Below, piece after piece: positions 3,429-63,387 of a stretch of 64,000 bases of DNA (the stretch's first letter is position 1; every line of letters starts with the position of its first letter). The stretch is taken from sequence record NC_052662.1; one strand, given 5' to 3'. The notes under the pieces were generated by a model that saw only the letters and a program-made list of their open reading frames with translations, was not told where the DNA came from and made no database searches. Source of the stretch: Escherichia phage Mt1B1_P17. Both the position numbers and the translations under genes were made by a program.

Positions 3429-5504
3429 TTATCTTTTACGGACACTATACGGTTGGTGAAATCCGCTGTTCATTCTACTGTATCCTGTAGGAGCATTTGT
3501 TGTTGTAGGGATAGCTACTGCTTTGAAAGTATTCTCTTTTGACAGAGTATTAAAACAAGAGGCAGCAGCATCGGGAATGTCATCTTTAATAGTGGCTGTA
3601 GATCTTTCACCATTGAAAGATTCCAATTCTTTATAAAAGTGGGTTAAAGTTTCCACATTAGGGAAAGAATCTTCAACAATATAAACAAAACCGTTTTGAC
3701 ACGCACTACTAAAAGGCATAAAACGCTGAAGCTTTTTCTTGTTACCTGGCATAGCATCTGGTTTAACAACAAAACCTTCTAGAATAAGTTTCTTTGCAGA
3801 CTCTGTGTATTCTATTGTCCCAGCACCAGATGGGTCTTTAGGAAGCACTACTGTAACTTCTGGTCCATCAATCTTACATTGATTTAGAATCAGGTTATCC
3901 CTTTCCCCAGGTAGTCTTCGAAACCTTCCGAAAATTTTACTTTTCTCATCCACAGCATCATAATCATAGTCGCCAAAGATGTAGATATTACCATCTTGAT
4001 CTTTACCCATTTTGACAGATGTTGTATAGTCTGGATAACGGTAAGTTTCTGTAGGAACTGAAACAGCTTTATCCCATGCTCGCATTAGTTTAAGATTGTT
4101 AGGAACATCTTTATAAGATATTTTATGTAACCATTCACGTTGAAAGAAAGATTCTTTCTGGATACGTGCAAACCAACAACCGTCCAGAAGCTGTGCTCTT
4201 TTGATAGCTGTTTGTGATTTAAGCTGTGCTAAGTAATTAGGGTTAAGCCTAATGAGTTCTGGGTTATCAAATATTGTCCCACCAATAAATACGAAAGTTT
4301 GTGGTTCAATAACAACTGTCTCCCCTGTATTAGGGTTTTCCATGAAACAGTTTTCTGGATATTTTTCTTTCAGTTCTTCAGGTGTGTCAGCAAAAACAGG
4401 TTCATCGTTAACAATGATGAAATATTTTTGTTTACCACACATATCTTCTCTAGGATAACCACCCTCATCAAGATAAGGTAACACCCAATTCAAAACCCAA
4501 CTATCTGCGTCAGGGTTACATGTGCACAACATGAAACTTGTTTCTGACTCTGAACGCATACGTCCCAGAAGATAGAGCATTTCATATTGTGTGAAGTGGG
4601 TTAACTCGTCAAAACCTACCATTGAATACTGTGTACCCTGATGGTTTGTTTCTGCTGTTACGTTATCATTTTCCAAATGGTCAAATTTGAGGGTTCCACC
4701 ACCAGTGGCTTCAAAAATGATATCCATTGTACTTTCTTTTACGTGTGGTTGTAAAGGAAGATACAAACGTTTTGCTTCTGTAAACAGACCACCTGGTTTA
4801 CGGTGAGCAGTGGTGTTCTTACGGAAAAGTATTCCACCAAACAAAGGGTCTTTGTAGGCGTATTTTAAAGCTTTCAGCAATAGCAGACGAGACTTGCCGC
4901 TATTCCCAGTAACGAAGCAGTGATCGCCACGTCTAAAGACAATATAGCTGCTTGGAGTCTCAAAACAATATTTCTTATCATCTGTTGAAATAACCTCGTG
5001 TATTTTTAAGTAAGTGCTCTTTTTACCAGGTATGTTAAAAGGAACACGTTTACCGAATGGATTTTCTACATAACCTTGCAGGGGTTTTCCTATTTGCTGT
5101 AATGCAATAAGATCTCCTACAAGAATCTCGAAATGTTTCTTTGATTTCTTTTTCTTATAGAATACAAAACGGTGTTCCATACTAAGTTCTTGGAATAATC
5201 CTACACCATTTGTTATTCTGTATAGGTTATCTCCATTTAAATCGTATTCTACAAAATAAGGTGTTACCAATTCTAAACGCTTATTCTTAGGATTGTATTG
5301 GTAAATATCCTCTCCCGAATATTCACTAATCTGCCTCCAACCATCTTTTGTAAGATATTCCGTTTCAGCAGAAACACATCCAGCGGCACCACCATAAATC
5401 ATAACTTCTGGCATTAAATCCATTGCAAGAGTCTGTTTACCTGGTTGAGCCTTTACCTCAATATCTACTCCAGCTAAACTACCTGCTGCCTTTTTCTTTG
5501 CCAC
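3429..5504 (-). CDS. terminase large subunit (ATPase plus nuclease), interrupted by an in-frame mini-intein
   Basis: 691 aa; Walker B-like VGFDELTHF, LCTCNP motif; P-loop is split as GGAAG / intein / SGKS, which rejoins to GGAAGSGKS. Confidence 0.85.
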   Translation of the reverse strand: MAKKKAAGSLAGVDIEVKAQPGKQTLAMDLMPEVMIYGGAAGCVSAETEYLTKDGWRQISEYSGEDIYQYNPKNKRLELVTPYFVEYDLNGDNLYRITNGVGLFQELSMEHRFVFYKKKKSKKHFEILVGDLIALQQIGKPLQGYVENPFGKRVPFNIPGKKSTYLKIHEVISTDDKKYCFETPSSYIVFRRGDHCFVTGNSGKSRLLLLKALKYAYKDPLFGGILFRKNTTAHRKPGGLFTEAKRLYLPLQPHVKESTMDIIFEATGGGTLKFDHLENDNVTAETNHQGTQYSMVGFDELTHFTQYEMLYLLGRMRSESETSFMLCTCNPDADSWVLNWVLPYLDEGGYPREDMCGKQKYFIIVNDEPVFADTPEELKEKYPENCFMENPNTGETVVIEPQTFVFIGGTIFDNPELIRLNPNYLAQLKSQTAIKRAQLLDGCWFARIQKESFFQREWLHKISYKDVPNNLKLMRAWDKAVSVPTETYRYPDYTTSVKMGKDQDGNIYIFGDYDYDAVDEKSKIFGRFRRLPGERDNLILNQCKIDGPEVTVVLPKDPSGAGTIEYTESAKKLILEGFVVKPDAMPGNKKKLQRFMPFSSACQNGFVYIVEDSFPNVETLTHFYKELESFNGERSTATIKDDIPDAAASCFNTLSKENTFKAVAIPTTTNAPTGYSRMNSGFHQPYSVRKR
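4902..5378 (-). mobile_element. mini-intein (Hint domain, about 159 aa, no endonuclease domain) inside the terminase P-loop
   Basis: residues 43-201: starts CVSAETEYLTKDGW (block A-like), internal SMEH (block B-like), ends ...HCFVTGN followed by Ser +1; excision restores the Walker A motif. Confidence 0.7.
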
Positions 5505-6191: not shown

Positions 6192-6362
6192 TTAACTATC
6201 TTCTTCACTTCCATCGGTTGAGCCTCCGCTAGGATCTCTTCCCAAGTCTTCTCTGTCATCATAAAGTTCTTCCTCTAAGTTCCAAGCCCGTGTGTAATCA
6301 TTCTTTTTATCTTTATGATAAGAAGAACGGTTAAAATCATTTTTAACTACAAAATTGCGCAT
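6192..6362 (-). CDS. small acidic hypothetical protein (56 aa)
   Basis: ATG preceded by GAGGAGG; below the 60 aa cutoff of the ORF track. Confidence 0.3.
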   Translation of the reverse strand: MRNFVVKNDFNRSSYHKDKKNDYTRAWNLEEELYDDREDLGRDPSGGSTDGSEEDS

Positions 6363-6420
6363 ATTTTATCCTCCTCATATCTGATCTTATCACAAAATGA
6401 TATATAATTGCAAGCATTAA

Positions 6421-6455
6421 AAATAAAAAAGCCCCTAACCTTTCGGAGAGGGGTG
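6421..6455 (-). terminator. Rho-independent terminator after the 6503..6799 gene
   Basis: GC-rich hairpin (GCCCCTAACC...GGAGAGGGG) followed on the minus strand by a T-run (plus aaataaaaaa); second small hairpin GGGGCAAAGCCCC at 6475..6487. Confidence 0.55.
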
Positions 6456-6502
6456 TTAAAAATAACAAGGAGGAGGGGCAAAGCCCCAAGAGAGGAGAGG
6501 GA

Positions 6503-8580: not shown

Positions 8581-8777
8581 ATAGTTTTTTAAAACATTTT
8601 ACCATGAATGGTGACTCCACCAACCCCCGTTCTCAACGAACGGTGCTCTTCGAGCATTTATGTCTTCTAATATAACCGTGGCCTTTGTTTATAATGTCTG
8701 ACATACTTGCCTCATTCTCTGCCACCATGATCAGTAGTGGGTTCAAATCACTTGAGCTAATTCATGTTAAAATGTTC

Positions 8778-8852
8778 TGGTGTCTTTACAAGGAATCGAA
8801 CCTTGACTAAGAGTTTAGAAGACTCCTGTGCTATCCATTACACCATAAAGAC
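8778..8852 (-). tRNA. tRNA-Arg (anticodon TCT)
   Basis: acceptor GTCTTTA/TAAAGAC, D-arm GTGT..CAC, anticodon stem GGAGT/ACTCT with loop CTTCTAA, T-arm CAAGG-TTCGATT-CCTTG, CCA encoded. Confidence 0.8.
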
Positions 8853-8854
8853 GT

Positions 8855-8929
8855 TGGTGGCCCTGGCTGGTTTCGATCCAGCTACCTATCGGTTATGAGC
8901 CGACAGCTCTCCCATTGAGCTACAGGGCC
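8855..8929 (-). tRNA. tRNA-Met (anticodon CAT; second CAT tRNA)
   Basis: perfect acceptor GGCCCTG/CAGGGCC, D-arm GCTC..GAGC, anticodon stem GTCGG/CCGAT with loop CTCATAA, T-loop ATCGAAA, CCA encoded. Confidence 0.7.
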
Positions 8930-9133
8930 ATAAATGTGGTAACAGAGACGCTGACGATTGTAGAGAACCGCTACATTCTCTAAGACCAAGCCCAACTTTC
9001 AGCGTAAAAGTTCTTGAGCCGAGACTATTCCTTTTCCTCTTTGGTAGCTAACCTCTGAAGAAGTAGTCTCTAACACTACCGCAGTGCAAGCCCCTCTTAA
9101 CAAAAGTCAACGACCCTGTTACCACACTTGATG

Positions 9134-9167
9134 AACGTATCCTAACATATGAAGGATACGTTTGTCA
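9134..9167 (-). promoter_or_regulatory. promoter-like TTGACA box overlapping a 9-bp inverted repeat (possible operator)
   Basis: fourth CTATTGACAA copy (plus 9162..9167); downstream element is the palindrome AACGTATCC-N11-GGATACGTT (9134..9162); -10 is weak. Confidence 0.35.
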
Positions 9168-9175
9168 ATAGTTAT

Positions 9176-9490
9176 TTAAGCATATTCTGTTACTTCTTCA
9201 CTATCTTTCTTTTCTAGAAGAGCAACAACCAAAGCTTCTGCGTTAAAAGTATTAATTTCAAGATCCATCTCTCGCATCAGAGCCAAGAAATCAATAACTT
9301 TAACATCTTTAGTGATTACAATAGAAGTTGTACCATTGTTTTCAGATGTGTATTTTTCTGGATGGAAAAGAAAAACTGCATTGCCGTTACCATCTTCAAA
9401 CACGTGTTTTTCTAATAGAGACATTGTTCCTCCTAATCTGTTAGTTGTTCGTCCTCTACCAAGTTTGACACGAGAACGTCTGTTATACAT
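9176..9490 (-). CDS. hypothetical protein
   Basis: 104 aa ORF, first gene of the leftward unit upstream of the tRNA cluster. Confidence 0.5.
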   Translation of the reverse strand: MYNRRSRVKLGRGRTTNRLGGTMSLLEKHVFEDGNGNAVFLFHPEKYTSENNGTTSIVITKDVKVIDFLALMREMDLEINTFNAEALVVALLEKKDSEEVTEYA

Positions 9491-9684
9491 TGATGCTGAT
9501 AAACCCTTTCGGGACTATCATCAAAAGCCAAACCTGTGCAAATAGAACAGAGGTCTGATTCCTTGATGACTCCATTTTTATCACGTCTGGAGTGGTTTGT
9601 CAAATGCCTATTACAAGCACGGCACCTAAAATAAAAGCTATTTTGCATATATCCTTCGAACCCCAAATGGGGAGTGATCGGCAT
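9433..9684 (-). CDS. hypothetical Cys-rich protein (CxxC ... CxxC)
   Basis: 83 aa ORF overlapping the downstream ORF by 58 nt; true start may be internal. Confidence 0.3.
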   Translation of the reverse strand: MPITPHLGFEGYMQNSFYFRCRACNRHLTNHSRRDKNGVIKESDLCSICTGLAFDDSPERVYQHQCITDVLVSNLVEDEQLTD

Positions 9685-9721
9685 CTCCTCACTTCTAGTT
9701 TAGCACGAAGGATATCTTAAG

Positions 9722-9907
9722 TCAACTAGGAATAATTTTATCCTTTTTGGTTTCATAACCAGTCCAATCTAAATCCTCCCAGCCTTCATCATCGTCTAAC
9801 ACATTGTCATCATCATAAGATGCAATGTTATAAATAGAACGTGGATTACAAGACATACAATCTTTAATAGGCACATGATGCCATTTGCACGGATTCTCGC
9901 TAATCAT
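9722..9907 (-). CDS. hypothetical small Cys-containing protein
   Basis: 61 aa ORF; a TATAAATA box (plus tatttata at about 9972..9979) lies about 65 nt upstream on the minus strand. Confidence 0.45.
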   Translation of the reverse strand: MISENPCKWHHVPIKDCMSCNPRSIYNIASYDDDNVLDDDEGWEDLDWTGYETKKDKIIPS

Positions 9908-9949
9908 TGCACACCTCCATTCTTGTTAAGATGTTCCGTACTGTACTTC

Positions 9950-10140
9950 ATACTGATCTATAGATCAAGTATTATTTATAATAATTTATTATTTTATTTT
10001 TAATTGATAGAAGTTGATCTGTACGTACCAGTTCTGATACACTGTACCTGTTTGTTAGATCTAATAATTATTTATTATTAATATTTAATAATTATTAATC
10101 TAGTACAGAGTACAGTACTTGAGTACAGAGTACTACATCA
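9950..10140. repeat. AT-rich divergent intergenic region with palindromes and short direct repeats
   Basis: palindrome TGATCTATAGATCA, a roughly 45-bp AT-rich imperfect inverted repeat centred near 10075, and AGTACAG x3 with AGTACT palindromes at 10101..10135. Confidence 0.5.
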
Positions 10141-10388
10141 ACAACCTAAAACCTTAACTCGCTGCGCTCGTTAATAGATTTCTAGGGTAGCATACTTCGA
10201 ACACAAAAGTCAAGAGTTTTATTAAAAATTATTTTCTGTGTGCAAAAACCTTGCTTAAACAGGTAGCAATAGTATATCCTATAACATAAGCTTCATAAGA
10301 GGCTCGTAGAGCAAGTTCACTTACTAGGTAAGGTGATTTATCATCTTATATATAAAAAGTGCGTCAGAGACGCGTTTAGGAGGCTAGA

Positions 10389-29494: not shown

Positions 29495-29821
29495 ATGGGT
29501 ATTGATATCGAATGGCGTATGTTACAGGGTGCACCTTTTAATAAGTGGGAAGAGGCTGTAGGAGAAGATCCTAGAATTGAAGAAGAATTTGATGGAGATT
29601 TTAACTGGTTCTTACAAGAAGGTCTTGACTTAAGCCGCATCTCTCCTTTCTACGATGCAGATGAGTCTTATTGCATATATGGCCTTGATTTAGAAGGTGG
29701 AGAAGGAAGCATAGCTGTAGATCTTGAGCAATTGAATGAGAATGCAAAAGAAGCCTATGCAGAGCTACTTGAAAAATATAACATTAAAACGGAAACTATT
29801 ATTTCTCAACATGTCTGGTAA
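29495..29821 (+). CDS. hypothetical acidic protein
   Basis: 108 aa, RBS GAGGAGGAG. Confidence 0.5.
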   Translation: MGIDIEWRMLQGAPFNKWEEAVGEDPRIEEEFDGDFNWFLQEGLDLSRISPFYDADESYCIYGLDLEGGEGSIAVDLEQLNENAKEAYAELLEKYNIKTETIISQHVW

Positions 29822-35165: not shown

Positions 35166-35402
35166 ATGGGTAAACTAATTATGACAGTGGCTATTGATTT
35201 TGATGAAGTAGATGAAAGCCTCAACCTTTCACTTTCTACTGACGTAGATGGCGAAATGGATAATATTGAAGCAGCTACTGCTCTTTTCTTCAAAAAAGCC
35301 ATTGAAGTTTATGCCGAACATGCTGCAAATCAGGCAGTAGATTACGGTGGTATCGTGCGAGCTTTAGTTCACTCTACCGAGGGCAATGACTGGGAAGATT
35401 AA
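35166..35402 (+). CDS. hypothetical protein
   Basis: 78 aa. Confidence 0.5.
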   Translation: MGKLIMTVAIDFDEVDESLNLSLSTDVDGEMDNIEAATALFFKKAIEVYAEHAANQAVDYGGIVRALVHSTEGNDWED

Positions 35403-35605
35403 TGGCTTACAATTATTACTGCATTTATGCACATGAAAAGAAAAAAGGTGACACTGGGACTAACGTTTATGCGGAGTCCGAATCTCATGCAAAAGAGATT
35501 GGTGCTATCCTTTTATCACGCTGGACTGGAAATAATTACAGTGCAGAAGATATGTTTGCAGAAGTGGATTCTAGTATCCAAGAAGACAACATAACAACTA
35601 CGTGA
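35402..35605 (+). CDS. hypothetical protein
   Basis: 67 aa, start overlaps upstream stop. Confidence 0.5.
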   Translation: MAYNYYCIYAHEKKKGDTGTNVYAESESHAKEIGAILLSRWTGNNYSAEDMFAEVDSSIQEDNITTT

Positions 35606-35614
35606 TATACTTAT

Positions 35615-35640
35615 ACTCCCTTTTCGGAGGGAGTATTTTA
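35615..35640 (+). terminator. hairpin terminator
   Basis: ACTCCC-TTTTCG-GAGGGAGT followed by ATTTTA. Confidence 0.5.
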
Positions 35641-44956: not shown

Positions 44957-45238
44957 TCAAGCCTTAGCGTAGAAAAACTTCTCATATTCAGATTTTGTTA
45001 CGATTGTGGGGCAATCTTTTGTTCCATCCTCGATAACAGGGGCTTCTACCATTCTGGTGTTGAATAAGCAATAAGTTCCACGCATGTAAATACCCAGTTT
45101 TGTTTCTACGATGTGCTCTTTACTTACGCTTGAAAACTTAATCTCACCATCGGAGTCTCTTATAGCAATAAGCGCATGTTCGGGCCAATCTTTTCCTTTT
45201 GCTCCTAAAGCATTATACAATTCTTGAACGAGTTCCAT
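44957..45238 (-). CDS. hypothetical protein
   Basis: 93 aa. Confidence 0.45.
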   Translation of the reverse strand: MELVQELYNALGAKGKDWPEHALIAIRDSDGEIKFSSVSKEHIVETKLGIYMRGTYCLFNTRMVEAPVIEDGTKDCPTIVTKSEYEKFFYAKA

Positions 45239-45250
45239 ATGACCTCCTTA

Positions 45251-45451
45251 TTAAATAACAAATTTTTCTTCTTCTGGCTTATCGTAATCTGGAGAATAAA
45301 CATGTGCGGGATTAAAACCTTTAAAATTTCCGCGACCTTTACGTGGACAGTTGAATGTGCGAGCTTGATGATCCCCAAAAGATTTCCCACAATGCATACA
45401 TTTAAAATCAGTGCGTTTAGTCATGCCATATCTCCTTTTAAAAGGCTGCAC
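45251..45451 (-). CDS. small zinc-binding protein
   Basis: 66 aa; CMHCG ... NCPRKG. Confidence 0.45.
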   Translation of the reverse strand: MQPFKRRYGMTKRTDFKCMHCGKSFGDHQARTFNCPRKGRGNFKGFNPAHVYSPDYDKPEEEKFVI

Positions 45452-45476
45452 CTATTGAAGATGCAGCTTTGATAGA

Positions 45477-45578
45477 TTATTTAGATGAGTCTAAAATGTC
45501 TTTTACTTTTGCCGTGATAACGTCTTGATATTTGTTAATAAGATAGCCTACAACTACACCTACGATAAATGAAACCAT
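45477..45578 (-). CDS. small single-pass membrane protein (33 aa)
   Basis: ATG after AAGGAG; hydrophobic core FIVGVVVGYLI; below ORF-track cutoff. Confidence 0.3.
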   Translation of the reverse strand: MVSFIVGVVVGYLINKYQDVITAKVKDILDSSK

Positions 45579-45587
45579 TATTTCTCC

Positions 45588-48846: not shown

Positions 48847-49042
48847 TTCTACCTCCTTCGATGCTTTGTGCCGTACCATCCCAAGCCATTAGAATATTTG
48901 CCAATAGTTCACGAGGCTCTTTAAACCAAACTTCCATTTCATCAAGAATCTCGTCCGTGTCGTAAGTATAACCTGGAACACCAAGTTCGCATTTCTTAAG
49001 ATAGCTTTCTAACCAGCGGTGATAATTCTTAACCCCATTCAT
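48839..49042 (-). CDS. hypothetical protein
   Basis: 67 aa. Confidence 0.45.
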   Translation of the reverse strand: MNGVKNYHRWLESYLKKCELGVPGYTYDTDEILDEMEVWFKEPRELLANILMAWDGTAQSIEGGRNE

Positions 49043-49415
49043 ACTGTGCTACCTTTTCTTTTACCCAATCTACACGATCTTTATCATAATGTTGAGTGCC
49101 AAGGAAAAGACCATTGTGGAAACTTTCCTCACCGAAAGGATAAATTGGATCTAAACCATCTTCTTCAAACAACATTTTTAATCGATTTGATGTAGATTTC
49201 TTAGTTTCTGAGTTGTAGTTTGTGGTTATAAGCCAATCTTCCAAACAACGACACAAACCTTGACGAGAATCCCAAGGAAAAACACAATCTCCGATAGGAG
49301 CTTGTTCCGCCCATTTCAACCAGCCTTTAAAAAAGTTATACAGTATATAGTCTTCAGTGTAATACATTATCTCCTCCTTTACGTATACAATAACACCCCG
49401 AAGAACGGGGTGCAA
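49029..49415 (-). CDS. paralog family A member (divergent)
   Basis: 128 aa; shares F-x-x-W-L ... GLC ... PF ... R-V-x-WVKEK with six other ORFs. Confidence 0.5.
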   Translation of the reverse strand: MHPVLRGVIVYVKEEIMYYTEDYILYNFFKGWLKWAEQAPIGDCVFPWDSRQGLCRCLEDWLITTNYNSETKKSTSNRLKMLFEEDGLDPIYPFGEESFHNGLFLGTQHYDKDRVDWVKEKVAQYEWG

Positions 49416-50034: not shown

Positions 50035-50307
50035 TCACCCCCAAGAAATATTTATATATCTTACAATGTTTGCACTGTCTAAAGCCATGTTTGCACCACA
50101 CCCACGCTCGCGCCAGTAACTAACAATACCTTCGCAGATACTTTCTTGTATCTTCTTATCACTTGGCATTTCTAGTATAAGACTTGGATTGTGGATGTTT
50201 ATGTTATAATATCCTTCCTCTGCGGCTTGAGCTACCAATTTACTTACTTTTTCAAAGTACGGGGAATTAGTGGCATCTGCCATTGTTTTTAAGGTTTGTC
50301 TATCCAT
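50035..50307 (-). CDS. hypothetical protein
   Basis: 90 aa. Confidence 0.45.
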   Translation of the reverse strand: MDRQTLKTMADATNSPYFEKVSKLVAQAAEEGYYNINIHNPSLILEMPSDKKIQESICEGIVSYWRERGCGANMALDSANIVRYINISWG

Positions 50308-50705
50308 TATTCTGCCTCATCATAGAAGAAATCCAACTCTTGTTCCAGTTGTTTAACTCGATCCTTAACCCACTGTACACGTTTTTCATTAAACATGCAA
50401 CGTTTTTCCTTACACTCTTGCTCAAAAGATTTTGCTGTGTTAAATGGGAAAGTTGTATCTAAGCCAGCGTTTTCAAAACTGGCTAATTGCATACCATAAA
50501 CAGAATATGCTAGAGAATGCTCTGCCCGAAATTCATCACTTATATACATACGCAGACCTCGGCATAAGCCAACATCAGCGTAACCACTTTCTCTTGGAAA
50601 GAGACGGAGGTGTTCTAACCAATTATTATAGAAATCTAAAAGAATCCTCTTACACTTCAAATCGATTGTCATAAAAAGTTTCTCCTTCATCAAACAAGTT
50701 GGCAA
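50307..50705 (-). CDS. paralog family A member
   Basis: 132 aa; FYNNWL ... GLC ... FPFN ... RVQWVKDRV. Confidence 0.5.
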   Translation of the reverse strand: MPTCLMKEKLFMTIDLKCKRILLDFYNNWLEHLRLFPRESGYADVGLCRGLRMYISDEFRAEHSLAYSVYGMQLASFENAGLDTTFPFNTAKSFEQECKEKRCMFNEKRVQWVKDRVKQLEQELDFFYDEAE

Positions 50706-51072
50706 GATTGTTCACGGCAATCTGGGTGGAAAGAAGACAACTGTTTGCAGACACATAAGCACGAGCTATTTTGTAAACATAAACTTTCGTATTACAATTG
50801 TCTAGGATCGGAAGACTTTCGTCGATAGCATCTATAACACTAAACATCACATCTAAAACTTTAATGGTGAGTGTTGTATTTGTATCTTCGTAACCTTTTT
50901 CAATCAGACCTGAATAGAAGGTATAGTCCTCAACAGTTCGTCGTTTAAATTGGCGCATAAAATCGGAACCATCTGTAGCAGAATTGAACAAATTTTCAAA
51001 AAATACGTCCCATCCTGCAAAAAGGGCTGATAGCATGATTAAGTGATCTATAGATTCATTTTCTTGTTTCAT
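50650..51072 (-). CDS. hypothetical protein
   Basis: 140 aa; overlaps the upstream gene by 56 nt, start may be internal. Confidence 0.45.
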   Translation of the reverse strand: MKQENESIDHLIMLSALFAGWDVFFENLFNSATDGSDFMRQFKRRTVEDYTFYSGLIEKGYEDTNTTLTIKVLDVMFSVIDAIDESLPILDNCNTKVYVYKIARAYVSANSCLLSTQIAVNNLANLFDEGETFYDNRFEV

Positions 51073-51080
51073 ATCCTCTC

Positions 51081-51758
51081 CTATTTAATGTTCAGTCTGG
51101 CACACAAACGAGAAACAGTCTTAGCATCCCATTTACCACCACGTGCTGTTGCTATTTTCTTACTATTGAATTTTTCAGCAATAGTTTTGTAAGGTGTATT
51201 TAAATCTCTAAGGATCTCCAAACGTTCACGAAATGTCTCTGCAAAAGCGTCTGCTTTAACAGAGTTGTATTCCATTTTTCCTTTTCTACGTGCAGCGGCA
51301 GTTTTAGGATTAGCACTGCCTAATAAAACACCTTTGCTTTTTGCTACAGCAAGACCCTTTTTAATACGATCAGCAATACCTCTAACTTCTTGTTCAGCCA
51401 GAACAGATAGAAGCTGTATAACCATTTTATCTGCGTCTGGCATGATGGCTATCTTAACATCGATCATCTCCAGAAGAGTTGCTACGGAGGCGTTGTTACG
51501 ACCCAAGCGGTCAACTTTAGCTACCAATAAAGTTGCTCCGGTAGCTTTACACATTTCAACCGCTTTGACCAGTTCTTTACGTTGCTTCCAATCGCCCTTA
51601 CCCGAATAGTATTCAGAAAATTGACCAATAACTTCAGCATCAGGCACAGAGTCTAAGAAGTAACGGATATCGTTCTCTTGGCTCTCCATACCATATTGTG
51701 CCTCACCTTTTTTCTGTTTAGAAAGACGACTGTAAACAACAAACTTTTTCATAACCAC
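51081..51758 (-). CDS. serine recombinase (resolvase/invertase family)
   Basis: 225 aa; catalytic-domain motifs VVYSRLS (Ser nucleophile) and LLVAKVDRLGRN; C-terminal HTH-like region. Confidence 0.65.
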   Translation of the reverse strand: MVMKKFVVYSRLSKQKKGEAQYGMESQENDIRYFLDSVPDAEVIGQFSEYYSGKGDWKQRKELVKAVEMCKATGATLLVAKVDRLGRNNASVATLLEMIDVKIAIMPDADKMVIQLLSVLAEQEVRGIADRIKKGLAVAKSKGVLLGSANPKTAAARRKGKMEYNSVKADAFAETFRERLEILRDLNTPYKTIAEKFNSKKIATARGGKWDAKTVSRLCARLNIK

Positions 51759-51822
51759 TCCTAAACTATTACTGTATTCTCACTTTACAAAACGAATAAA
51801 CACTTGTCAAGGTATTTATTAT

Positions 51823-52035
51823 TTACAGCCATTCTACTCTTAAGCAGTATTCCTCGACATGTTGTTTACGCTTGTTTTTGTCTATGTAAGTGTATTCAAC
51901 AAATGTCCCAAGATAGTCCTTGTCTACATTGTGTGGGCTATTGATTGGACATTTAGTACGACAAACCCGTTGCCACTGACGAAGAATTACGGCTTTGTTT
52001 TTAGGATCAAAGGGATGAGGGTAATGTGCCTTCAT
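51823..52035 (-). CDS. hypothetical protein
   Basis: 70 aa. Confidence 0.45.
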   Translation of the reverse strand: MKAHYPHPFDPKNKAVILRQWQRVCRTKCPINSPHNVDKDYLGTFVEYTYIDKNKRKQHVEEYCLRVEWL

Positions 52036-53190: not shown

Positions 53191-53517
53191 TCAACCAATT
53201 ATTTCTTCTGCTACACGTTCTTTTACCCAGTTCACACGATCCACATTCAAATGACAACGGCTTTTTTCCGCTTCTAAGGTGTACTTTCCAAAATTACTGT
53301 TGAAAGGCAACACCATAACCAAACCTTTGAGGTAGAACTGCTCATGCATTTCATCCAGTACAGGTTCGTATCGTTCGCTTTCTCCTATGTCGTAAAAATC
53401 ATAGAGGTTCGTGCACAAACCTGTGCAACGGGTGAACGGTTCACCTTCAGGAGCACCAGCTTCCAACCATGCCAAATACGTGCGGTAAAATGTTAATAGT
53501 TCTTCGCTCATTTCCAC
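53191..53517 (-). CDS. paralog family A member
   Basis: 108 aa; FYRTYLAWLEAGAP ... GLC ... LPFN ... HLNVDRVNWVKERV. Confidence 0.55.
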   Translation of the reverse strand: MEMSEELLTFYRTYLAWLEAGAPEGEPFTRCTGLCTNLYDFYDIGESERYEPVLDEMHEQFYLKGLVMVLPFNSNFGKYTLEAEKSRCHLNVDRVNWVKERVAEEIIG

Positions 53518-53722: not shown

Positions 53723-53950
53723 TTATTCCTCCATCTCAAACCATTCAGGGAACACTTTATGGAAGACACGGGTTGTTTCCAAAAGGAATTCCAATTCTTT
53801 TTCCAGATCTGCGTTCCAATCGTGCACTTTAACATTGATTGCCAATGCACTTGCACGGCGACTTAATTCTTGACAGATTGGATCACGCAGAACTATTGAG
53901 TCGTAAAACTGACAAACGGCCTCAAGTTCATACCAGTTATAATCCGACAT
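53723..53950 (-). CDS. hypothetical protein
   Basis: 75 aa. Confidence 0.45.
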   Translation of the reverse strand: MSDYNWYELEAVCQFYDSIVLRDPICQELSRRASALAINVKVHDWNADLEKELEFLLETTRVFHKVFPEWFEMEE

Positions 53951-54276
53951 TATTCATCCTCCTCTGCAATACGATCTCTTACCCAATTAATCCTGTCCAC
54001 GTTCAGGTGACATACCTCTGCATCTGATTCTAAGACATATGCATCGTAGTTCTCATTGAAAGGGAGTTCTTGACTCAACCCTTTGTAGTAAAACTGTGAG
54101 TGCATTTCGTCTGACAAGGTTGTTATAAGGAGATTGTAGCCATCTGCGTGCACATAATCGAACAAGTTGGCACACAAACCGCAATCTCGCCGAAAAGGTT
54201 TACCATCAGGAGCACCAACATCAATCCATGCTAGATAAATTTTATAAAACTCCATCAACCCTGCGCTTGTTTTCAT
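53950..54276 (-). CDS. paralog family A member
   Basis: 108 aa; FYKIYLAWIDVGAP ... GLC ... LPFN ... HLNVDRINWVRDRI. Confidence 0.55.
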   Translation of the reverse strand: MKTSAGLMEFYKIYLAWIDVGAPDGKPFRRDCGLCANLFDYVHADGYNLLITTLSDEMHSQFYYKGLSQELPFNENYDAYVLESDAEVCHLNVDRINWVRDRIAEEDE

Positions 54277-56991: not shown

Positions 56992-57228
56992 TTATTTATC
57001 TTGCTTGTATCTTACAAGGCGATCACACTCTAGGTCAAGAAATTTCTCCGCATTTCGTTCATGTTTGAGCACAATACATTGTTCTTTCCAGTCTGTAGCT
57101 CTTTGCTGCGCTGCTCCTGGGTCAAAATCCCAAAGCCATGCCGCGAAAAGAACAACCATAACAATTACTAAGAAACTAAACACTATTGGCATTGCACATC
57201 CTCCTGTGTAGCATGGTCTTTTACCCAT
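56992..57228 (-). CDS. small membrane protein
   Basis: 78 aa; transmembrane helix IVFSFLVIVMVVLFAAWLW. Confidence 0.45.
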   Translation of the reverse strand: MGKRPCYTGGCAMPIVFSFLVIVMVVLFAAWLWDFDPGAAQQRATDWKEQCIVLKHERNAEKFLDLECDRLVRYKQDK

Positions 57229-57497
57229 TTTATACGGGCAGCATTCAAATGCAATAGCCCGTTTCTTTGTGCAAAATCATATTTAAACCAGTCTCCGTCA
57301 TCAAACGGGTATTCTTCAGACAATCCTGCCTCACGGAATTGCATTTGCATTTCATAATTTAGATCATCATAACCTCCAGTCCAAAGGTAGAGGCAACTAC
57401 ATAATCCTTTATCATGCCAGAAAGGATTATTATCTGGAGCACCAGCTAATAGCCAGTTATGATATGCCTGATAAAATTCTTTAAGTTCTTCTGACAT
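57183..57497 (-). CDS. paralog family A member
   Basis: 104 aa; FYQAYHNWLLAGAP ... GLC ... YPF ... HLNAARIKWVKDH. Confidence 0.5.
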   Translation of the reverse strand: MSEELKEFYQAYHNWLLAGAPDNNPFWHDKGLCSCLYLWTGGYDDLNYEMQMQFREAGLSEEYPFDDGDWFKYDFAQRNGLLHLNAARIKWVKDHATQEDVQCQ

Positions 57498-62684: not shown

Positions 62685-63053
62685 TTATTCAATGCAAGCA
62701 TTATTTGCATCTTCAATTCTGTCTTTCACCCATTGAAGACGTAACGTGTTGGTATGACACGCCAAGTTTATACACTCTGAAAGGTAATCCATGCAATCTG
62801 CATTGAACGGAAGATTGTAGTCCAACCCTGCACATGTAAATTGTTTCCTCATTTCATATTTCAAACGGTCCAACAAACTATCCCGCCATCTTCTATCTTC
62901 TTCTCTAGTTGTCTCACCAACAAAATCATTTACATAATCTACCAGACAACCACATAAGCCACTCGTTGTGCGATTCATTGCAGGATAGTTGGCAATCCAT
63001 GCTTTATAGAAGCGAAGCAATGTTGCACTGCTCAACGGAATACTATTTGTCAT
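62685..63053 (-). CDS. paralog family A member
   Basis: 122 aa; FYKAWIANYP ... SGLCGC ... LPFN ... RLQWVKDRI. Confidence 0.55.
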   Translation of the reverse strand: MTNSIPLSSATLLRFYKAWIANYPAMNRTTSGLCGCLVDYVNDFVGETTREEDRRWRDSLLDRLKYEMRKQFTCAGLDYNLPFNADCMDYLSECINLACHTNTLRLQWVKDRIEDANNACIE

Positions 63054-63387
63054 TTTTCTCTCCTTCGTAATCTTGAATTCTATCTAGCACCCATTGTATA
63101 CGATGTTTGTTTTTATAGCAAATAAGTTTTTTATGTTCGAAGGTGTATTCTTCATAACCACCTTCATTAAACGGGAAATTGTAATCCAATCCTGCACTAA
63201 TAAACTGTGATTTCATCTCCTGTTGTAGACGAGGTAACAGTTCATCAGGATATGTTCCCTCTACATACTTAATCAAACATATGCACAAGCCACTCGTTGT
63301 GTGACCTTCTACCTCACCAGCAAGCCAAGCTTTGTAAAACTTCATTAGACGTAAACTACTCAACGGAACATTTTTACTCTCTTGCAT
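63043..63387 (-). CDS. paralog family A member
   Basis: 114 aa; FYKAWLAGEV ... SGLCIC ... FPFN ... RIQWVLDRI; first gene of the leftward block. Confidence 0.55.
   Translation of the reverse strand: MQESKNVPLSSLRLMKFYKAWLAGEVEGHTTSGLCICLIKYVEGTYPDELLPRLQQEMKSQFISAGLDYNFPFNEGGYEEYTFEHKKLICYKNKHRIQWVLDRIQDYEGEKNDK

Follow-up and report, generated by a model that had tools for sequence, protein, structure and literature searches.

The small serine recombinases Gin, Hin, Tn3/gamma-delta resolvase, and Sin have a catalytic domain, a helix E, and a set of active-site residues in common, and they recombine DNA through a phosphoserine intermediate and subunit rotation. DNA invertases of the Hin/Gin/Cin/Pin type are proteins of ~190 aa with an HTH_7 domain. 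They act on two inverted ~26-bp sites around an adjacent invertible segment, both orientations of the segment are found among isolates or reads, and a Fis-dependent enhancer is contained in the recombinase gene. Classical resolvases need HTH_7 and a res region with accessory sites; for Tn3 and gamma-delta, this region contains several dimer subsites and is located directly upstream of the gene, on a transposon or plasmid. Tn3/gamma-delta resolvases also double as repressors.

Large serine recombinases, such as Bxb1, PhiC31, SPbeta SprA, and A118/LI, are 450-700 aa in length. They contain a recombinase domain, a zinc ribbon, and a coiled-coil, and in the large serine integrases the zinc ribbon and coiled-coil control the directionality of attP x attB recombination. 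The IS607 family, to our knowledge the only transposases that are serine recombinases, has an N-terminal MerR-type HTH followed by the catalytic domain, and is often accompanied by tnpB. Cre-lox of phage P1 is a functional analogy only: Cre is a lone phage recombinase with one site per genome, which cyclises terminally redundant DNA and resolves multimers without rearranging the genome sequence. It differs in being a tyrosine recombinase, and in belonging to a temperate phage that persists as a plasmid.

The gene analyzed here was found in a stretch of 64,000 nucleotides from Escherichia phage Mt1B1_P17 (NC_052662.1), hereafter the window. The original prediction described it as a resolvase/invertase-family serine recombinase with a C-terminal HTH, and proposed either a Gin/Hin-like inversion switch or a mobile cassette that delivered the neighboring genes.

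The recombinase gene and its protein

The ORF list of the window includes a minus-strand ORF at 51081..51758, and both motifs quoted in the original prediction, VVYSRLS and VDRLGRN, were found in it. The true start is the ATG at 51752, not the GTG at 51758, because AGGAG is present 5 nt upstream of the ATG, the GTG overlaps the same RBS, and the database homologues are also 223 aa in length. The protein then begins with MKKFVVYSRLS and consists of 223 aa. The features of the locus are as follows:

51081..51752, minus strand: coding sequence of the small serine recombinase, stop codon included (223 aa)
51720..51722, minus strand: Ser11 codon; this residue of the motif Y7-x-R9-x-S11 is the predicted nucleophile (invariant in 28 homologues)
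51096..51308, minus strand: C-terminal helical DNA-binding-type domain, residues ~149-219, "recombinase-like HTH" (weak PF07508 match, fold, and family profile)
51758..51762, minus strand: RBS AGGAG, 5 nt upstream of ATG 51752 (read from the sequence)
51782..51810, minus strand: TTGACA-N17-TAAAGT, a predicted sigma70-like promoter that fills the 64-bp gap before the recombinase (consensus scan, 10/12 positions)
51823..52035, minus strand: upstream neighbor of 70 aa, homologue of phi92 gp013 (47% identity), not part of any recombinase unit
50650..51072, minus strand: downstream neighbor, a 140-aa ORF whose RBS overlaps the recombinase stop codon, not part of any recombinase unit

The window is 97-99% identical to ~60 genomes of Phapecoctavirus (phAPEC8-like, Stephanstirmvirinae), which are lytic myoviruses of ~150 kb, and its terminal repeats are of the phi92 type. 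The setting of small ORFs in a lytic phage, recognized already in the original prediction, is a long early-gene block on the minus strand; ORF-by-ORF BLASTP revealed its correspondence to the early genes 001-036 of phi92. Window base 64000, on the minus strand, aligns with base 1 of phi92, where the annotated 343-bp direct terminal repeat starts; the repeat would thus occupy ~63,660-64,000 of the window, next to 1.6 kb of non-coding DNA. By this alignment, ~12 kb separate the recombinase gene from the left physical end of the genome. The predicted promoter (51810-51782) is identical in phAPEC8 and Schickermooser, and the phi92 copy of the recombinase has TTGACT-N17-CATACT at the equivalent relative position. 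The recombinase is thus probably expressed early. In phiWec186, the gap upstream of the recombinase is just 10 bp. No transposon ends, transposase, or tnpB were seen near the recombinase among the ORFs of the region.

The Pfam search detected the Resolvase domain PF00239 at residues 7-144, with the e-value 5.4e-18 and a score of 65.9 bits against the curated cut-off of 23.3 bits, and the match covers positions 2-144 of the 145 model positions. The PHROG search matched PHROG 125, "DNA invertase", with the e-value 1e-32. Both matches score far beyond chance, and they bear out the family proposed at the outset. PF00239 is also matched by 28/28 family members. In the alignment of 28 homologues, with identity down to ~32%, Y7, R9, S11, R58, D81, R82, R85, and E122 are invariant. 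Judged from this conservation, the full serine recombinase active site, R9, S11, R58, D81, R82, and R85, is present. Alignment places the D-R-L-x-R block on VKKLDRLGRD of the Tn3 and gamma-delta resolvases, while the other equivalences to gamma-delta (R8, S10, R45, D67, R68, and R71) were assigned by motif. The PF00239 match and the catalytic residue set place the protein in the serine recombinase superfamily.

In the AlphaFold model, which is confident (pLDDT 92), an alpha/beta catalytic domain is followed by the long helix E (residues 109-139) and by a C-terminal domain of four helices. Small invertases and resolvases are related to the protein with profile e-values from 4e-17 to 1e-14 and a fold rmsd of ~3 A, and the chemistry is presumably the same as that of Gin, Hin, Tn3 resolvase, and Sin. 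The loop preceding helix E is ~7 residues shorter than that of gamma-delta resolvase. Gin aligns only over residues 44-158 (profile e-value 3.6e-17), and small serine recombinases of known structure match the fold of the catalytic part only, as does ISC1926 TnpA. In the IS607 family the order of the two domains is reversed relative to this recombinase.

The C-terminal domain is where the protein departs from the small recombinases. HTH_7 (PF02796) is matched by 0/28 family members in Pfam, this recombinase included, whereas PF07508 is matched by 19/28 and HTH_62 (PF20552) by 8/28. In the recombinase itself, a weak match to PF07508 "Recombinase" was found at residues 189-218 (model positions 19-48 of 102). 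The C-terminal HTH of the original prediction therefore holds as a helical, DNA-binding-type domain, not as the HTH_7 of Hin, Gin, and resolvases. At 223 aa and with a C-terminus of the PF07508/PF20552 type, the protein also differs in size and architecture from the ~190-aa invertases.

The sole full-length fold matches among solved structures are the large serine recombinases Bxb1, SPbeta, and PhiC31, and the family profile reaches residues 59-244 of SPbeta and 58-214 of Bxb1. The C-terminal helices match the start of the "recombinase domain" of the large proteins. The motif of the C-terminal domain is IAxxLNxxGxxTxRGxxWxxxxVxR, of which IAxxLNxxGxxT..G..W..xxV is shared with them. By profile and fold, the C-terminal domain is of the PF20552/PF07508 type and resembles the opening part of domain two of the large serine integrases. 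The remainder of their recombinase domain is absent here, as are their zinc ribbon and coiled-coil, and Pfam gave no match to the zinc ribbon PF13408. NCBIfam returned matches to YneB, XisF, Mpi, and CcrB only, all far below threshold. No signs of integration were seen for the recombinase: the phage is lytic, and matches at the Phapecoctavirus level are to phage records only. The authors of the phage SKA64 report likewise found no prophage matches (PMC10282059).

The gene is under strong purifying selection. Synonymous and non-synonymous codon differences in the recombinase are 11/0 against ETEC-TG, 10/0 against phAPEC8, and 13/0 against nieznany, in sum 34 synonymous differences and 0 amino-acid changes at ~2% silent DNA divergence. 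In the downstream ORF (50650..51072), the counts against the same relatives are 5/4, 3/5, and 8/5. The flanking small ORFs, unlike the recombinase, tolerate amino-acid replacements among close relatives. The protein is accordingly predicted to be an intact and catalytically competent enzyme. Invariant catalytic residues and strong purifying selection speak against the corollary of the original prediction, that a gene lacking nearby repeats and with invariant gene order would be domesticated or inactive.

One copy is an exception. The recombinase of Schickermooser was at first sight a divergent allele with 80% amino-acid identity; this was rejected, and it is the same allele, frameshifted, with eight small deletions clustered in ~400 bp that include the N-terminal half and the upstream gene. 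These deletions mark a pseudogene, or else the assembly is locally wrong. If the frameshift is real, the recombinase is dispensable for plaque formation.

Family, distribution, and relocation of the gene

Homologues covering 95-100% of the recombinase length numbered 75. The profile search against 1.84 billion representatives revealed 3,907 clusters at 50% identity with e-values of 1e-30 or lower, and most of the best 150 clusters are 215-240 aa in length and aligned to profile positions 1-220. By its length and domain content, the protein falls in the group of ~220-aa "recombinase family proteins" with a Resolvase domain and HTH_62 or a partial Recombinase domain. This family is very large, and its members are found on phages, prophages, and genomic islands. 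The hosts of the phages carrying homologues include E. coli, Klebsiella, Vibrio, and Shewanella.

The recombinase is at one locus in 63/63 Phapecoctavirus records matching the region, and its flanking genes are the same within the genus. Its protein is 100% identical to those of ETEC-TG, phAPEC8, and nieznany, and at least 99% identical in 61 records (tblastn). The protein is thus already known, having been deposited dozens of times under various names: phAPEC8_0049 is a "putative site-specific recombinase", the ESCO13 copy a "resolvase", the UP17 copy a "serine recombinase", and the ETEC-TG copy a "DNA invertase", and several GenBank records mislabel it as "methionine ABC transporter ATP-binding protein". 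Gene 053 of phi92, "DNA invertase", is the orthologue, with 57% identity, the same length, and the same domains.

In ICP1, a homologue is found only in a few isolates, within a replaced/variable multi-gene block. Three bacterial loci were examined. On an Aeromonas island, the homologue is 58 bp from a large serine integrase; in Gemmatimonadaceae, it is on a T7-like-looking prophage with a phage-type RNA polymerase and a large serine integrase ~6 kb away; and the third, a genomic island, encodes tyrosine integrases. Because each of these elements has a separate integrase, the homologue is an accessory gene in all three, not the element's integrase.

ORFs within 2.5 kb of the recombinase were compared among nine lineages: the window, phiWec186, phi92, a Klebsiella phage, Vibrio phage 1.170.O, ICP1, the Aeromonas island, the Gemmatimonadaceae prophage, and another genomic island. 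No co-travelling neighbor genes were found, and beyond close relatives the recombinase alone is common to the nine lineages. A cassette that delivers its neighbors, as had been suggested, is contradicted by this comparison and by the fixed locus in the genus.

The gene itself has been relocated. In phi92 and Klebsiella phage phi1_175008, the recombinase belongs to the opposite strand block and has gp054 and gp052 as its neighbors. The corresponding position in the window is an empty site:

35606..35650, plus strand: spacer of 45 bp that contains a hairpin and a T-run and separates the homologues of phi92 gp054 (35402-35605) and gp052 (35651-35845)

In the phi92-like phages, the recombinase and its promoter occupy exactly this position. 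Both the window copy and the phi92 copy have a sigma70-like promoter directly upstream, and both end with ...LNIK-stop followed by the RBS of the next gene. These comparisons indicate that the recombinase moved as a single unit between the Phapecoctavirus locus and the phi92-like locus. The mobility in the original prediction is favored on one partial point: a lone gene, together with its promoter, occupies separate places in the two sister genera. This does not extend to the neighbors said to be brought along. At the RBS/start-codon region, the phi92 junction on the recombinase side, CAGGAGGGTATTATG, is similar to the junction of the empty site in the window, AAGGAGGGATTATG. Junctions of this kind point to relocation by ordinary gene-sized phage exchange, rather than site-specific insertion by the recombinase's own activity.

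Search for an invertible segment and recombination sites

Inverted repeats were searched for in 15 kb around the gene, in the 64-kb window, and in a 151-kb composite genome made by joining ECO340P1 to the window. No inverted pair better than chance was found in any of the three, and the paired inverted ~26-bp sites of the Hin/Gin/Cin/Pin systems are absent there. In the composite, all inverted pairs of 20 bp or more are (bidirectional) terminator hairpins. The local and whole-window searches for direct repeats gave no convincing pair of sites flanking the recombinase, and the other matches of the repeat searches are RBS/start-codon similarities and paralogous coding repeats. Flanking sites had not been identified by eye in the original prediction either. 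The region directly upstream, where Tn3 and gamma-delta have their res region, is here a gap of 64 bp filled by the promoter, with no repeated dyads.

Three candidate pairs were rejected as being at chance level. The pair 50052-50089/52188-52225 brackets the gene (38 nt, 71% complementary), and it has many equals in the window and is inside coding sequence. The pair 51722-51741/51860-51879 around the promoter (20 nt, 80%) was judged to be at chance level. The pair 19429-19453/51741-51765 (25 nt), also at chance level, merely represents two RBS-ATGAAAAAG starts. Two of these three candidates fall within coding sequence.

Upstream dyads of bacterial and Vibrio-phage homologues were considered as a guide to the site, and were discarded; they share no motif, and none recurs in the window. 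They include a 32-bp palindrome at the locus L014, a palindrome with 18-nt arms at the locus L009, and a 29-bp palindrome over the RBS in Vibrio phage 1.170.O. A 35-bp palindrome just past the window end has a 7-mer in common with that of L014, in the opposite orientation, and this was taken as coincidence. No match to the Fur-box consensus was found with up to 3 mismatches allowed.

Gene order was compared by megablast in three pieces. Across all 64 kb, ~60 genomes show one collinear place per record, save for breaks at record ends, and gene order is likewise invariant in ~60 genomes in the 24.5-kb module of tail fibres and tail spikes, which is not part of the window. The apparent rearrangements of WPEC1, 2, 4, and 6 (9-13 "places" per query) were dismissed as assembly chimeras, with 150-nt tiles in both orientations, and not inversion isomers. 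The two segment orientations known among isolates for Hin/Gin/Cin/Pin systems are thus not seen around this recombinase in ~60 consensus genomes. The tail genes are tens of kb from the recombinase, on the opposite side of the genome.

With no inverted-repeat pairs, collinear genomes, and no HTH_7, a Gin/Hin-like switch is rejected at the level visible in consensus genomes. The original prediction had itself proposed a repeat search and a comparison of gene order as checks, and had named the result obtained here, no repeats and an invariant order, as the one that would speak against its proposal.

Possible roles of the recombinase

The best explanation of the locus, with a probability of about 0.5 as a whole, is that the gene encodes a lone, intact, and fixed recombinase of standard mechanism, which may have its role on phage DNA and was relocated by exchange. 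By inference from other family members, a recombinase dimer would bind a dyad site of ~30 bp through the C-terminal domains, and two bound dimers would synapse. Ser11 would then cut both strands with a 2-nt stagger, forming 5'-phosphoserine links; half of the tetramer would turn by 180 degrees, and the ends would be rejoined. The substrate of the recombinase may be the replicating DNA of the phage itself, on which it would act early and at a single site in each genome unit. In such a resolvase-like or Cre-like reaction, terminal-repeat-bounded or multimeric DNA would be converted to unit-length molecules.

This resolvase/Cre-like action on the phage's own replicating DNA is tentative, and stands only narrowly ahead of the alternatives, at odds well below even. 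Only a reaction of this class, producing unit lengths at a single site, leaves consensus genomes without a footprint, and it would account for the lack of both visible repeats and isomers. The paper on phage SKA64, the only published comment found, proposes the same resolvase role, without data (PMC10282059). Several observations oppose this role. No candidate recombination site was identified on the phage genome, in the window or in the 151-kb composite, and the repeat searches found no lox-like site. For terminal-repeat phages packaging from concatemers, no requirement for multimer resolution or for cyclisation by a recombinase is known, and this counts against the role. The absence of a res region and HTH_7 counts against a resolvase-like role in particular. 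The short promoter-filled upstream gap, missing in phiWec186, and the frameshift in Schickermooser are also on the opposing side.

It is rather unlikely that the recombinase performs some undescribed job in the lytic cycle, which could be Cre-like cyclisation or monomerisation at a single-copy site near the terminus, or the attack or manipulation of foreign DNA, be it that of the host, of a satellite, or of a competing phage.

Action wholly outside the phage's own DNA is quite doubtful. The enzyme would in that case recombine or cut a site in the chromosome of the host, in a prophage or satellite residing there, or in a competing phage, as part of host takeover or inter-element conflict. A foreign target would agree with a site pair that is not visible in the phage genome and with a predicted host-type early promoter among small genes of the host-takeover type. 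Two of the three bacterial homologue loci, those of Aeromonas and Gemmatimonadaceae, are on elements also encoding a large serine integrase, and interference of a lytic phage with the serine integrase of a satellite is known from ICP1, whose Adi acts on that integrase (PMC9638900). Adi is an unrelated protein of 147 aa, and the paper was therefore rejected as a link to the recombinase. The hosts, from E. coli and Klebsiella to Vibrio and Shewanella, are however too diverse for an obvious conserved target, and no gain is evident from recombining the DNA of a host about to lyse. In PADLOC, neither the recombinase nor its neighbors had a match, apart from one below threshold.

A selfish minimal mobile unit, in which the recombinase with its promoter inserts itself, or a gene that marks a neighbor-delivering cassette, is improbable. 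Different loci and opposite strand blocks in Phapecoctavirus versus Justusliebigvirus/Klebsiella phages, together with the precise empty site in the window, are what such a unit would leave, and the patchy occurrence in ICP1 isolates and the abundance of the family on prophages and islands fit it as well. Within the genus, however, all 63 records carry the gene in one position, and none lacks it. The repeat searches found neither direct nor inverted repeats on its flanks, the junctions are at RBS/start codons as in ordinary gene shuffling, no neighbor co-travels, and the domain order is unlike that of the IS607-family transposases. An intact and fixed copy under purifying selection fits a useful gene better than a parasite.

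A domesticated DNA binder or regulator that has lost recombination is very improbable. In its favor, recombination products are visible in no genome comparison, the possibly disrupted copy in Schickermooser belongs to a phage that is still viable, and the repressor function of Tn3/gamma-delta resolvases offers a precedent. A binder alone would be free to lose catalytic residues, and this contradicts it: R9, S11, R58, D81, R82, R85, and E122 are invariant among homologues down to ~32% identity, and the close relatives differ by silent changes only. Last, a switch of the Gin/Hin/Cin type, flipping a segment such as the tail fibres between inverted ~26-bp sites, is hardly credible: Gin is among the best relatives with solved structures, "DNA invertase" is the label of PHROG 125 and many GenBank records, and a weak inverted repeat brackets the gene, but that repeat is ordinary for the window, every inverted pair of at least 20 bp in the composite is a terminator hairpin, HTH_7 is absent, and ~60 genomes are collinear over the window and over the tail module, whose genes are tens of kb away.

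On present evidence, the lone recombinase does not represent a new kind of system. It is a lone, fixed, early gene of the whole subfamily, mislabelled in several records. It poses a small puzzle, as strictly lytic phages keep an apparently active site-specific recombinase without a visible substrate. The finding also bears on phage therapy, for which phAPEC8-type and phi92-type phages are popular candidates. Genome screens of therapeutic phages raise a flag for possible lysogeny at any recombinase. This one lacks the domains by which a serine recombinase becomes an integrase, and knowing this helps to read such flags correctly.

Recombinase copies and their records

The 223-aa small serine recombinase of Mt1B1_P17 (51081-51752, minus strand) appears disrupted in the record of one genus relative, Schickermooser (locus L002, NC_048196). 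Eight deletions of 1-7 nt lie within about 400 bp at positions 3,900-4,300 of that genome, corresponding to 51,520-51,912 in the window, and they frameshift the recombinase in its N-terminal half as well as the upstream gene at its end. The rest of the Schickermooser genome is about 97% identical to the window. This deletion cluster points to a pseudogene or, alternatively, to a local fault in the assembly.

More distant homologues are found in other arrangements. In Aeromonas (loci L009-L011), a homologue 42% identical to the phage recombinase (8,001-8,654) is convergent with a 501-aa large serine integrase (8,713-10,218), with 58 bp between them, and the pair is located at the margin of an integrated element with a DUF5906 primase-like gene. 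Whole recombinase units of about 220 aa are also repeated in tandem, in 2-7 copies, within proteins of 400-900 aa (P0076-P0087 and others), which constitute a minority of the top matches in the search of protein representatives. These proteins reflect genuine tandem arrays or else the fusion of separate gene calls.

Several public records contain errors of annotation or probable errors of assembly. The recombinase is named "methionine ABC transporter ATP-binding protein" in some records, and its 70-aa upstream neighbour (51823-52035, minus strand) is named "putative ABC transporter ATP-binding protein" in others; LR597654, MW175890, OR352955 and MN850648 are among the records with one or the other mislabelling. 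WPEC4 (L020, PV682947) includes, at 39,250-45,580, chains of tiles of about 150 nt in both orientations, derived from window 29,520-29,671, 36,367-36,521, 62,983-63,135 and 6,347-6,496, and the same was observed in WPEC1, WPEC2 and WPEC6. All four were deposited in GenBank as "complete genomes". The tiles are of read length, and the chains are interpreted as assembly chimeras rather than as biological rearrangement.

Paralogues, hairpins and repeat arrays

At least seven dispersed paralogues of one family of about 105-130 aa, similar to gp006 and gp010 of the related phage phi92, were recognized in the early block of the window, and the main families of direct repeats detected in the repeat search stem from them.

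gp006/gp010-like paralogues and hairpins in the window
49029-49415, minus strand, paralogue
50307-50705, minus strand, paralogue
53191-53517, minus strand, paralogue
53950-54276, minus strand, paralogue
57183-57497, minus strand, paralogue
62685-63053, minus strand, paralogue
63043-63387, minus strand, paralogue
35606-35650, spacer between gp054-like and gp052-like ORFs, hairpin and T-run (ACTCCCTTTTCGGAGGGAGT TTTT)
44,570-44,593, perfect hairpin with a 10-bp stem (AAAGGCACCC-AAGT-GGGTGCCTTT), T-runs on both strands

The spacer at 35606-35650 is exactly the position occupied by the recombinase and its promoter in phi92-like phages. The perfect hairpin marks the convergence of the plus-strand block encoding DprA, a methyltransferase and Sir2 with the minus-strand early block, and is probably a bidirectional terminator.

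Beyond the window, the relative ECO340P1 (L021, 440-8,550) contains at least 10 direct copies of an element of about 30-40 bp, GCGGCACCATTGCCGCCCTACGTGGTAAA, composed of a stem-loop and a conserved tail, and the copies are placed in the spacers that separate very small ORFs. This array is regular and cassette-like, and recalls the promoter-stem-loop elements of T4-type phages.

The left genome terminus

In the alignment to phi92, base 1 of phi92, where the 343-bp direct terminal repeat annotated in that phage starts, corresponds to the last base of the window (64000, minus-strand reading). Thus, the window end is the physical left genome terminus, and the counterpart of the repeat is at about 63,660-64,000. 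Fur-box-like AT-rich dyads are present at about 63,724-63,745 and 63,905-63,925 and are kept in the phi92 repeat; the strict Fur consensus, with up to three mismatches allowed, did not match these dyads.

A near-perfect 35-bp palindrome, ATTAGCTCGCTATG-N7-CATAGCGTGCTAAT, is located about 415 bp past base 64000 in ECO340P1 (L023, 2,338-2,372), in a 1.6-kb non-coding stretch adjoining the terminus. Its copies are identical in three genomes (that one, L001 25,413-25,447 and L013 9,217-9,251). The palindrome is a candidate protein-binding site near the terminus.
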